A stretch of DNA of 64,000 nucleotides, taken from assembly GCF_013167455.1 (NCBI RefSeq), contig NZ_CP038328.1. One strand, 5' to 3'. Shown piece after piece: positions 46,301 through 49,300 of the stretch (position 1 is its first letter; each line of letters starts with the position of its first letter). Made by a program: the position numbers. This DNA is from Escherichia coli O157:H7. Its GTDB lineage: Bacteria > Pseudomonadota > Gammaproteobacteria > Enterobacterales > Enterobacteriaceae.

Positions 46301-49300
46301 CCACATCAGCAGACGGTGATTATCACGGGTCGGGGCTGTCATCGGGATATACTCGAACTGGCGGATACGGTAAGTGAGTTACGCCCCGTGAAACATGCGT
46401 TTGATGCTGGCGTAAAAGCGCAGATAGGGATTGATTACTAATCTGTAAAAATGCCGGATATGACGTCCGGCATACGTTGATTAACCGTTATTACGCCCAC
46501 CAGAACGACGTCCGCCGCTCACCTGACTGTGACGTTTCACCGCACGACGAATCTGATTCGCCTTCATGCGACGACGGTCTTTTTCTACAGCGACTTTAGA
46601 GCTGGTTTCTGGCGGCAACTCCACCAGTTCGCGCAGATAGTTAGTCTGGGCAAGATCCAGCTCCGTCCAGCCGCCGCGTGGCAGACCTTTCGGCAGTGGG
46701 ATATCACCGTAACGAACACGGATCAGGCGGCTTACCTGCACGCCAACCGCTTCCCACAGACGACGAACTTCACGGTTACGGCCTTCGGTCAGAGTCACGT
46801 TGTACCACTGGTTGATCCCTTCGCCGCCGCTGAACTTGATGGTTTTAAAGGCTGCCGGACCATCTTCCAGCTGCACACCACGGCTTAAATCACGCAGTTT
46901 CGCGTCGTCAACCTGACCAAATACACGCACGGCATATTCACGTTCAACTTCACGGCTTGGATGCATTAAACGGTTAGCCAGTTCACCGTCGGTGGTGAAC
47001 AGCAACAGACCACAGGTGTTAACGTCCAGACGACCTACGGCAATCCAGCGTGCACCGCGCAGCTTTGGCAGACGGTCAAACACCGTTGGACGCCCTTCCG
47101 GATCGTTACGGGTACACAACTCACCTTCCGGTTTATAATAGGCCAGAACGCGACAAATTTGTTCAGCGGACTCACGTACCGAAATCAGGTGACCATCGAT
47201 ACGGATTTTCAATCCAGGGGTAACTTCAACGCGATCGCCGAGTTTAGCAATTTTGCCATCAACACTCACACGACCGGCTTCAATAATAGATTCGATTTCA
47301 CGGCGAGAACCGTGGCCGGCACGCGCCAGCACTTTCTGTAGCTTTTCGCTCATAGAGCTTCCTTTTGGTGTCGCCTTCCCAGGCGTCTGATATGCTTTTG
47401 TGCAACAGTGAGTCAGAACTTACATCTGACTCACTGATAGTAAAGTCTGTTTGAACTCTTCAGGCCTTAAGTAAACGACTCGACGTTTTAACTGGCCTGG
47501 CTTTGAGGCGCAACATACTACACTATCTTTATGGTTAAAGCTTGTTTCGATTAACATCAGCTTAATTACCAGCCACCACCGCCTCCGCCACCCGCAGCAC
47601 CACCGGAATAACTTCGCCCCAATAAACTGGTATTGGCCCCCAGACTCAGGTGCATCTGTAATGAGAACAAAACGCCACTACGGGCAATTTCCGGGGCGCG
47701 AACAGCCGCTGTGAGTGATGGGGTGATACGTGCTACCCATTCTCTTCCAAGGTTTGCTGAGACAGCCCAACCTAGCAACGCGTAATCCAGTTTCCGTGTT
47801 TCCCCTTTCCGCCGACGCCCACTGTGTGTTGCTGCCTCTTTACGCGCGAGATAGTTAACGATAGCTTCACCGTGGGCATAACGTTGCTGCCCAGTTTGGG
47901 TAAACTTTGGCAGAAAAATATACCCCATGCCAGTGAGATAACCGGTCAGGAAAACAGCGCTAAAATAACCCGCTGGCATATACCAGTAAAAGAATACATC
48001 TCCGACATTGATATAGAGAGAATAAAAGGCCACGCCTGAACAAATCAGCGGTAAAAACAAAGTGATGATTACACGATTAACGCAAGGCTTGTCATCATCG
48101 CGGGCAAACAAAAGCTCAAGGGAACAAAATAAAAAAGGAAGAAGCCAGCAGATCATAATAAACATATCGCCCACCAGACTCATTCCTGCCCAGCCTACAG
48201 GACTCAGGTTACCGTAAAGAATGACCGCCAATATTGCCAGTCCACCCCATTGCAAAAAAGTATCAGGCCGGTAAAACGAAGACTTTTTACGCGGCAGATA
48301 AAATTTCTGCATCCGTAAAACATCTACCGACGTAAATTGCGGCCTGCGCTTCCAGAGATATAACCATCCACAAACCAGGAATAGACACGGAAACCAAATT
48401 AACAACGATGACGTGGAGGGTAAAAGAAGATGGCTGAAAATATTCGTCGTTTGTGGAGCCGGGGCATTGCTAAGTAACGAGTGAGGCCAACGGTAGAGTA
48501 CCGTGAAATCTTCACGATAAAACGGATCGCTGGATTCAATTCTTCCGTCCTCAAGGATGCGGCCATTTCGATATGTGTCGCCCTCTTCTCCAGTAAAGAG
48601 ATCGATTTCGCTAAATGGATTACCCGCGATATCAGGGAACTTGAGTGAAAATCGGGTCTTATAGATTTCAAACGGCCAGTGGTTACCAGTCACGTTCCAG
48701 ATTAACAGATCTGAATCTCCCTCACGCAGGAAAGCATTTTTAACCTGATAATGAATTTGATAATGATAGTCGCCTTGAGGCAAGAAACGTTGTTTATCGC
48801 CCACGACAATACTCATTAACCCGATATGCCAGTCAAGATGCCAGGGTTCAGGAATACCATCACGGGTGACGCCAACAATATGATAGTTCAGCAGTGCAGC
48901 GTCCCCATCAGGCTGCATCCATAGTCGTGGTAAATCACGATAAAATCCGTGCTTAATCTGCTGATTTCGCGCCTGAAAATGAATATTTTCTTTGATGTCG
49001 AGCACCCCATCCGGTTGCAGAGTGGCTTCAACATCAAAGAGCGAGATCCCTTCTTCATAAGAAGGCATCTCCGTGTTTTTCGCATAACTTAACGAAGAGA
49101 AAAAAAGCCCAACTATCAACAGCAAAATGCAGCGAAACTTCCCTGCCATAGTCTTCCATCCGTGGAACGCAATTTGTTATAAGAAAGGCTTCACATCACC
49201 TACGCCTTCACGCACCACGACCGGCGTATCATCGGTAAGATCAATAACCGTTGTTGGTTTCTGCCCGAGATAGCCGCCGTGAATAATCAAATCGACCTGT

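Follow-up and report, generated by a model that had tools for sequence, protein, structure and literature searches.

The inverted repeat upstream of rluB in Escherichia coli O157:H7: an RNA stem-loop of a transcribed leader and a likely relic of an integrative island end

The rluB locus and its inverted repeat

The element considered here is a short palindrome in a 64,000-nucleotide stretch of Escherichia coli O157:H7 DNA (the window; NCBI RefSeq assembly GCF_013167455.1, contig NZ_CP038328.1), in which yciO, yciQ and rluB follow one another on the minus strand and the spacer between yciQ and rluB carries a perfect inverted repeat (Table 1). On the plus strand, positions 47406-47436 read CAGTGAGTCAGA-ACTTACA-TCTGACTCACTG, with 12-bp arms and a 7-nt loop; the corresponding stem-loop is called hairpin 1. 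An earlier, sequence-only reading of the window had picked out a perfect 11-bp repeat at this place; the repeat is borne out, with the correction that its arms are 12 bp long, the loop having been split one base off. That reading had also put the element about 50 bp upstream of rluB and about 130 bp downstream of yciQ, in agreement with the measured 53 nt to the rluB ATG (47353, minus strand) and 130 nt from the yciQ stop (47566).

Hairpin 1 is a genuine feature that chance does not explain. With loops of 3-12 nt allowed, the window contains no more than 7 perfect inverted repeats with arms of 10 bp or longer, hairpin 1 included; in 30 first-order Markov shuffles the mean was 0.73 such repeats, and arms of 12 bp or longer never appeared; and the 12-mer of the arm has no copies in the window beyond the two arms themselves (0.12 expected). 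The rluB-sense RNA folds at -20.1 kcal/mol (z = -5.1), which bears out the description of the element as a strong stem-loop, and the values stay at about -20 kcal/mol and about -5 whichever strand is folded. The absence of an adjoining T-run, likewise remarked at the outset, holds for both strands, and a scan of the yciQ-rluB spacer for promoter and terminator consensus called no terminator and no promoter on the rluB strand. A search of Rfam with positions 46300-48300 (E <= 10) returned no family.

The six further perfect inverted repeats of the window, with arms of 10-14 bp, lie at 9738-9768 (14 bp), 35660-35696 (13 bp), 27242-27268, 30629-30658, 31194-31219 and 43796-43821; the last of these is nearly identical to the yciN/sohB terminator sequence in a published Term-seq table.

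Table 1. Features of the yciO-yciQ-rluB region (coordinates of the window)
Feature	Position	Strand	Remarks
rluB coding sequence	46481..47353	-	23S rRNA pseudouridine-2605 synthase
rluB ribosome-binding site (RBS)	47358..47364	-	AAGGAAG, 4 nt before ATG at 47353; conserved
Hairpin 2	47370..47387	-	GACGCCUGGGAAGGCGAC; first 16 bp = attachment-site (att) core direct repeat of the H15 island
Tail between hairpins 1 and 2	47388..47405	-	UUGCACAAAAGCAUAUCA; homologous to UUGUUUUUGAAAGUAUACCA in relatives
Hairpin 1	47406..47436	-	rluB-sense RNA CAGUGAGUCAGA-UGUAAGU-UCUGACUCACUG, 12-bp stem, 7-nt loop
Rest of the yciQ-rluB spacer	47437..47543	-	aligns to the integrase-proximal island arm; further imperfect hairpins
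rluB promoter, -10 element TAGTAT	47515..47520	-	start maps to window 47507 by homology to K-12
yciQ	47566..49149	-	DUF2207 membrane protein, accessory gene upstream of rluB
yciO	49177-49833	-	

Hairpin 1 in the rluB leader

The spacer of E. coli K-12 is nearly identical to that of the window and has the same perfect repeat, at 1326769-1326799. For K-12, Yan et al. 2018 (PMC6131387, SMRT-Cappable-seq supplement) report a transcript, 1326700-1327761, that covers only b1269 (rluB), along with a second rluB-directed start at 1326297 (+), inside yciQ; in the long reads of the same study, transcripts from the rnm promoter cover only rnm-yciO and end before yciQ. With the K-12 rluB ATG at 1326852, the 5' untranslated region (5'UTR) of rluB is 152 nt long and hairpin 1 begins 69 nt into it; the repeat therefore lies inside the 5'UTR. 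By homology, K-12 start 1326700 corresponds to window 47507, which places hairpin 1 at +70 to +100. Hairpin 1 is thus an RNA stem-loop inside the rluB 5' untranslated leader. Folding of the mapped 5'UTR leaves it intact, and the leader as a whole is unusually structured (z = -4.7; z = -4.2 for the fold of the yciQ-rluB spacer).

The Term-seq tables of Adams et al. 2021 give the rluB terminator end at 1327761; for K-12, under the conditions studied, they contain no 3' end at 13265xx-13268xx. The TERMITe tables, too, have no 3' end there, a further resource of starts or 3' ends is empty for the region, and the K-12 tables consulted place neither a 5' nor a 3' end at hairpin 1. Transcript mapping near rluB, which had been proposed as a check, accordingly puts the repeat within a mapped 5'UTR and finds no boundary at it. 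The published K-12 tables further contain two bicyclomycin-sensitive (Rho-dependent) sites, at 1325258 (+) inside yciQ and at 1326939 (-) antisense to rluB. The searchable literature on rluB in conjunction with yciQ, UTR or terminator, integration site or RNase III holds no description of this leader.

The spacer also contains an imperfect inverted repeat that adjoins hairpin 1 (47436-47451 with 47512-47527), whose 16-nt arms are separated by 60 nt and complementary at 81%. Because the mapped start falls downstream of its 5' arm, the main rluB transcript cannot make the outer stem; inner helices (GCCAGGCC...GGCCUG and AAACG...CGUUU) are possible in that transcript. A 45-codon ATG open reading frame on the minus strand (47420-47557), which starts 9 nt past the yciQ stop and has its TAA in the hairpin 1 loop, was considered as a gene and judged probably spurious because it overlaps the integrase fossil described below.

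Distribution of the element

In E. coli, the 45-mer around the repeat is found in 3976 of 5426 complete genomes (73%) as a single copy (median one place per genome); it is exact in 2643 of these and has 1-2 base differences in 1333. The other yciQ-bearing strains that were read, three out of three, carry a C>T change in the 3' arm that leaves a G.U pair in the rluB-sense RNA and, on the opposite strand, an A.C mismatch; to judge from these alleles, the perfection of the 12-bp repeat is lineage-specific. The window spacer is 100% identical to that of E. coli PV15-279. Roughly a fifth of E. coli genomes match the rluB-proximal 88 nt only, and in the one of these that was examined yciQ and the repeat are absent and yciO lies 100 bp from rluB. 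The element is absent where the yciO-rluB spacer measures 100 bp, as it does in some E. coli, E. albertii and Citrobacter. No yciQ is found in 80 loci from other Enterobacterales, nor in the E. coli locus with the 100-bp spacer; the gene is 1584 bp long (527 aa) in O157 and 1896 bp (631 aa) in K-12 (L086 747-2642).

Conservation across Enterobacterales, the other check that had been suggested, is patchy: 73% of E. coli and about 20 other loci have hairpin 1 or a homologue, and most Enterobacterales are without it, so that general presence in the order can be dismissed. The distance between yciO and rluB varies across Enterobacterales loci (L005-L085) from 83 bp to >3 kb, which marks a hypervariable insertion hotspot, and the cargo is unrelated from locus to locus (a type VI secretion Hcp, an HEPN_LA2681 protein, a PRD/EIIA regulator, an alpha/beta hydrolase-like protein, integrases and others). 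The homologues of hairpin 1, at about 20 loci in different genera and different upstream contexts, each lie directly 5' of hairpin 2, and follow the pattern CAGTGAGTTA...TAACTCRTTG, usually continued by TTTTTGAAAGTATACCA. A hidden Markov model (HMM) of hairpin 1 and its tail, from which hairpin 2 had been excluded, finds one copy per positive locus at about 22 loci, always 5'-adjacent to hairpin 2, and no second copy in the 64-kb window.

Hairpin 2, the conserved neighbor

The stem of hairpin 2 has seven positions, six of them paired and one an A.A mismatch, and is capped by a GNRA tetraloop that reads GGGA in the window and GUGA elsewhere. Its sequence, GACGCCTG[T/G]GAAGGCGAC, lies just 5' of the rluB RBS in 85 of 85 rluB loci (within the set L001-L087, which extends from Escherichia to Yersinia, Erwinia, Pantoea and Serratia), and only one of these loci departs from it, by one base; all 6 of its pairs are constant in a 20-sequence alignment, and it is not in Rfam. 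RluB recognizes the GUGA-capped helix 93 of 23S rRNA. The comparison of hairpin 2 with the real helix 93 sequence brings out a generic likeness only, in the length of the stem (7 positions), the GUGA loop and an irregularity close to the base of the stem.

The island end

At several loci, the gene for a 555-aa tyrosine recombinase (Pfam Phage_integrase) begins within a few tens of nucleotides of hairpin 1 and points away from rluB. Such integrase-adjacent homologues are found in E. coli H15, K. quasisacchari, E. mallotivora and a soil metagenome-assembled genome (MAG); the integrase itself is carried by 7 of the 5426 E. coli genomes and also by Kosakonia, Erwinia and soil MAGs. In E. coli H15 (L087, NZ_CP010178.1, 13324-21745; related: L042, L055, L026 and L028), an 8.4-kb island separates yciO from rluB; besides the tyrosine integrase, it codes for a YagK/YfjJ protein, a DUF4238 protein, a serine recombinase and a hypothetical protein. 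At its left junction, the native leader of the 100-bp type is complete up to GACGCCTGTGAAGGCG, where island DNA takes over; at the right junction the sequence is ...hairpin 1-TTTTTGAAAGTATACCA-GACGCCTGTGAAGGCG-ACAC...ATG. The 16-bp direct repeat GACGCCTGTGAAGGCG is thus present at both ends of the H15 island, and the sequence of the empty site is available in L005. Since this repeat is hairpin 2, hairpin 2 is the att core. Comparison of Kosakonia sacchari with a related empty site discloses the same logic of left and right junctions with a shorter repeat. The window has only the rluB-side copy of the core repeat; a search for direct repeats flanking yciQ in the window, or flanking the inserts in L027, L028 and L031, yielded chance-level pairs only.

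The O157 yciQ-rluB spacer can be aligned along most of its length to the island arm of H15, Kosakonia and Erwinia. The spacer holds an antisense fossil of the N-terminal codons of the integrase (RGRTYYT = GTGTAGTATGTGCGCCC; the integrase N-terminus is MVHSMANN...IRGRTYYTNFRL), and the aligned stretch includes GTGTAGTATGT(T)GCGCC, the antisense of the RGRTYYT codons in the islands. The mapped rluB start lies just past TAGTAT, within this fossil (window 47507-47543, minus strand; K-12 1326664-1326700). Given this alignment, the promoter of rluB, the hairpins upstream and the repeat itself would, in K-12 and O157, all be relics of an island end, and the rluB promoter of these strains appears to have been recycled from a gene fossil of the decayed element. 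On the same sequence comparisons, hairpin 1 qualifies as a relic of the att arm of a tyrosine-recombinase island: the integrase adjoins it in relatives, the core repeat is found at both junctions, and the empty site is known. An excised island circle (attP) would be expected to read ...GTATACCA-GACGCCTGTGAAGGCG-CATAGG... if the hairpin-1 arm belongs to attP. A phage origin of the island was set aside, the integrase having no tblastn match in 50,697 phage records and the arm-plus-core pattern none in viral contigs.

Pairing and the loss of the T-run

The alignment of 20 hairpin-1 homologues allows the stem to be followed pair by pair. The 12 pairs are formed in 82% of cells, with both sides changed in 8 of the 12; the observed covariation score is reached by none of 500 shuffles, and pairing falls from 88% to 33-48% when the partner is slid by 1-3 columns. 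Among the first 10 pairs, 151 cells are Watson-Crick, 23 are G.U and 5 are A.C. The G.U cells pair in the rluB-sense RNA only, whereas the A.C cells would pair on the opposite strand only, and the excess of the former over the latter favors an RNA structure over a protein-binding DNA palindrome. Within Escherichia, the divergent strain SCPM-O-B-8794 (L006 100-155, against window 47388-47440) has the orthologous spacer with the stem CAGTGGGGCAGG / TCTGCCCCACTG. Half of its 18 substitutions relative to O157 (over 174 aligned nt) are concentrated in the 31-nt hairpin, and all five that fall in the stem keep pairing. This lineage also has a 21-nt deletion in the upstream hairpin and TATGAT as its -10 element, and its hairpin allele is absent among the 5426 complete E. 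coli genomes. The RNA element that the sequence-only reading had offered as one of two alternatives is supported by these observations: it lies inside the mapped 5'UTR, and its pairing is kept by compensatory and sense-only G.U changes. The role in processing or stability that the same reading had named is no more than possible.

The window copy of hairpin 1 differs from its relatives in what follows the stem: its tail, UUGCACAA, has 2 T in the first 8 nt, and most non-Escherichia homologues have 4-6. The homology of UUGCACAAAAGCAUAUCA to UUGUUUUUGAAAGUAUACCA in relatives identifies the tail as the site of U-tract loss. The folds diverge as well, with about -3 to -17 kcal/mol for non-Escherichia homologues (about -7 to -17 in most of them) against -17 to -25 kcal/mol (and 1-2 T in the next 8 nt) for the Escherichia copies that have no integrase. 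The copy of Kosakonia quasisacchari was called terminator-like. The early judgment that the element is something other than an intrinsic terminator consequently stands for the window, where the U-tract is missing, and fails for its relatives, most of which (outside Escherichia) have 4-6 T in 8 nt, one having been scored as a terminator. (An automated count of T residues after the 3'-most hairpin, run over 85 leaders, was too noisy to serve as evidence.) The native leader of Citrobacter, E. albertii, Enterobacter, Lelliottia and Kosakonia consists, in order, of a conserved TATACT element, a variable GC-rich hairpin, a T-rich tail (TTTTTG in Enterobacter and Lelliottia) and hairpin 2. The island arm mirrors this layout in a different sequence: TAGTAT promoter, hairpin 1, TTTTTG and core.

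A proposed history, and its alternatives

These facts about the locus make it probable that the repeat is an RNA stem-loop of the rluB leader, a relic of an island end, and the hairpin of a terminator or attenuator that has lost its U-tract and is now read through. The module, roughly 230 bp long, would be the integrase-proximal end of a small integrative island that inserts at the invariant 16-18 nt of hairpin 2 (GACGCCTGKGAAGGCGAC), just before the rluB RBS. Insertion there would sever rluB from its native promoter, and as it separates the gene from its own promoter the simplest reading is that the arm serves as a replacement leader, bringing with it an outward-facing promoter of the TAGTAT type followed by hairpin 1 and its T-run. 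In relatives, hairpin 1 and its U-tract would most likely act as a partial terminator or attenuator, restricting the transcription that enters rluB or insulating the gene from it. In the O157/K-12 lineage, the integrase would have decayed to a fossil with yciQ upstream, leaving the relic arm as the present promoter and 5'UTR of rluB; in Escherichia, the U-tract would have been lost and the stem strengthened, so that polymerase reads through and hairpin 1 stays as a stable leader structure. A stronger stem combined with a lost T-run fits the read-through transcripts and the absence of mapped 3' ends. On this account, the window repeat is most likely a terminator hairpin that no longer works and survives as a stable structure of the leader, where it may still have some role, for instance in causing pausing, affecting decay or blocking transcription from upstream. 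The proposal makes a prediction: restoration of the T-run in the tail (UUGCACAA to UUUUUGAA) should, if the hairpin attenuates, lower rluB expression.

A number of points weigh against this proposal. The consensus terminator scan called only one tested homologue (L042), not L027 or H15, and also missed the native Enterobacter hairpin. The rluB start site is known from one data set. Shuffle controls overstate significance for related sequences, and many of the G.U cells are inherited from few events. Template-switch mutation can give compensatory changes in a quasi-palindrome without selection. The H15 island copy of the hairpin is weak (-6.3 kcal/mol, z = +0.7), from which it follows that the stem is not always maintained. 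Yersinia leaders have a hairpin-1-like stem and a TAATAT promoter without island genes, so that transfer may have gone from island to chromosome or the reverse.

Several of these points are shared by an account that is plausible, if not likely: the element would be a functionless quasi-palindrome of the decayed island end, kept perfect by intramolecular template switching in replication. It assigns the repeat the same origin as the proposal above and parts from it in function only. The bacteria can do without the element, which about 27% of E. coli and most Enterobacterales lack; 99.9% of E. coli genomes no longer have the integrase; the H15 copy is weak; and no transcript end has been mapped to the hairpin. 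Divergence between the two Escherichia alleles amounts to 29% in the hairpin against 6% in its flanks, with paired changes, a pattern such as template switching would give. That process produces Watson-Crick symmetry, however, not an excess of sense-only G.U cells (23 against 5), and the commonest imperfect allele in E. coli is itself a G.U variant. Both Escherichia alleles, moreover, have stronger stems than any island copy and have lost the T-run, which looks directional. A more ambitious account, and a quite unlikely one, regards the whole rluB leader as an undescribed cis-regulatory RNA of Enterobacterales composed of a variable, terminator-like hairpin 1 and a conserved hairpin 2. Under it, hairpin 2 could by analogy be an operator for RluB or some other ribosome-assembly signal that controls rluB; islands that target hairpin 2 would then have to carry a working leader, and the repeat would be the E. 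coli form of the first hairpin.

That hairpin 1 protects the 3' end of the yciQ transcript, exonucleases trimming Rho-dependent ends back to the stem-loop, is improbable. It is stable, has no U-tract and lies 130 nt past the yciQ stop, an architecture such as PMC6061677 describes for Rho-dependent transcript ends of E. coli, and one bicyclomycin-sensitive site is within yciQ. Yet the element goes with rluB and hairpin 2, and it is found without yciQ in the H15 island and in Kosakonia, Leclercia, Erwinia and Pseudocitrobacter; the 3'-end tables consulted have no entry for the site; the long-read transcripts that start at the rnm promoter span only rnm-yciO; and the rluB start lies between yciQ and hairpin 1. 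A site acting in DNA, whether for a regulator, for the integrase, an excisionase or an accessory protein of the att arm, or as an integrase promoter on the opposite strand, is very improbable here. In genomes with the island the element is within about 50 bp of the att core and beside the integrase gene, the adjacent tail is better conserved in sequence than the stem, and the opposite strand in Leclercia has a promoter-like match across tail and loop. Among the homologues, however, half-site sequences vary while pairing is kept, the arms are spaced by 7-15 nt, and G.T changes destroy DNA symmetry, so that the dyad is broken in most relatives; the window has no integrase, which would make the site vestigial anyway. 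A palindromic transcription-factor operator was rejected on the same evidence, the 23 G.U cells breaking DNA symmetry and the site lying 70-100 nt downstream of the rluB start, off the promoter; the protein-binding palindrome offered by the sequence-only reading as its other alternative falls with it.

Significance

Taken alone, the repeat is a modest curiosity, one more leader stem-loop and probably a disabled terminator. Its surroundings matter more. In Enterobacterales, the stretch directly before rluB is a hotspot of integration, and the target is a short hairpin kept in 85 of 85 loci; the searchable literature yielded no description of rluB as an island target. With the promoter and 5'UTR recycled from an island end in some strains, one species would express the same housekeeping rRNA-modification gene from two unrelated leaders, and the two leader types offer a natural comparison for the effect of the leader on RluB levels or ribosome assembly. 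Hairpin 2, flagged here as an uncharacterized conserved RNA or DNA element, is the more interesting by-product.

Comparison with known systems

Substrates of E. coli RNase III have about two helical turns of double-stranded RNA, roughly 20 bp or more. Hairpin 1 was rejected as an RNase III processing site: its stem has only 12 bp, the folds provide no coaxial extension, and the literature search gave no cleavage data. With the REP/BIME and ERIC/IRU families the element has in common that it is intergenic, transcribed, variable between strains and an imperfect-to-perfect palindrome; unlike them it is single-copy in each genome, matches no Rfam family and shares only a short chance motif, and membership was rejected on its median of one place per genome and its one hit in the 64-kb window. 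The stem-loops at trimmed Rho-dependent 3' ends are likewise strong intergenic hairpins without a U-tract, downstream of a gene; hairpin 1, in contrast, follows the leader of the downstream gene across genomes and has no mapped 3' end.

To intrinsic terminators and 5'UTR attenuators, too, there is a likeness. The stem-loop stands between promoter and coding sequence and is followed by 4-6 U in most non-Escherichia homologues, and the native rluB leader of Enterobacter and Lelliottia has a GC stem and UUUUU at the equivalent place. The window copy retains the stable stem-loop of an intrinsic terminator and departs from the type in its tail (UUGCACAA), which is no U-tract, and in having no 3' ends mapped in vivo; from attenuators the rluB leader differs in that no alternative anti-terminator structure or sensing element was identified in it; attenuation is a proposed role.

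The arms of tyrosine-recombinase and P4-like att sites furnish a counterpart for the origin of the repeat. The present case is distinguished from them by its target, the 5' leader of a protein gene (a GNRA hairpin before the RBS) in place of the 3' end of a tRNA or tmRNA gene, and by an island that is known from sequence and whose integrase has no match in the phage collection. What it shares with them is the integrase that abuts the site and is transcribed away from it, the 16-bp identity at both island ends, the island-borne arm that replaces the displaced sequence, and the decayed copies that are left behind as scars.

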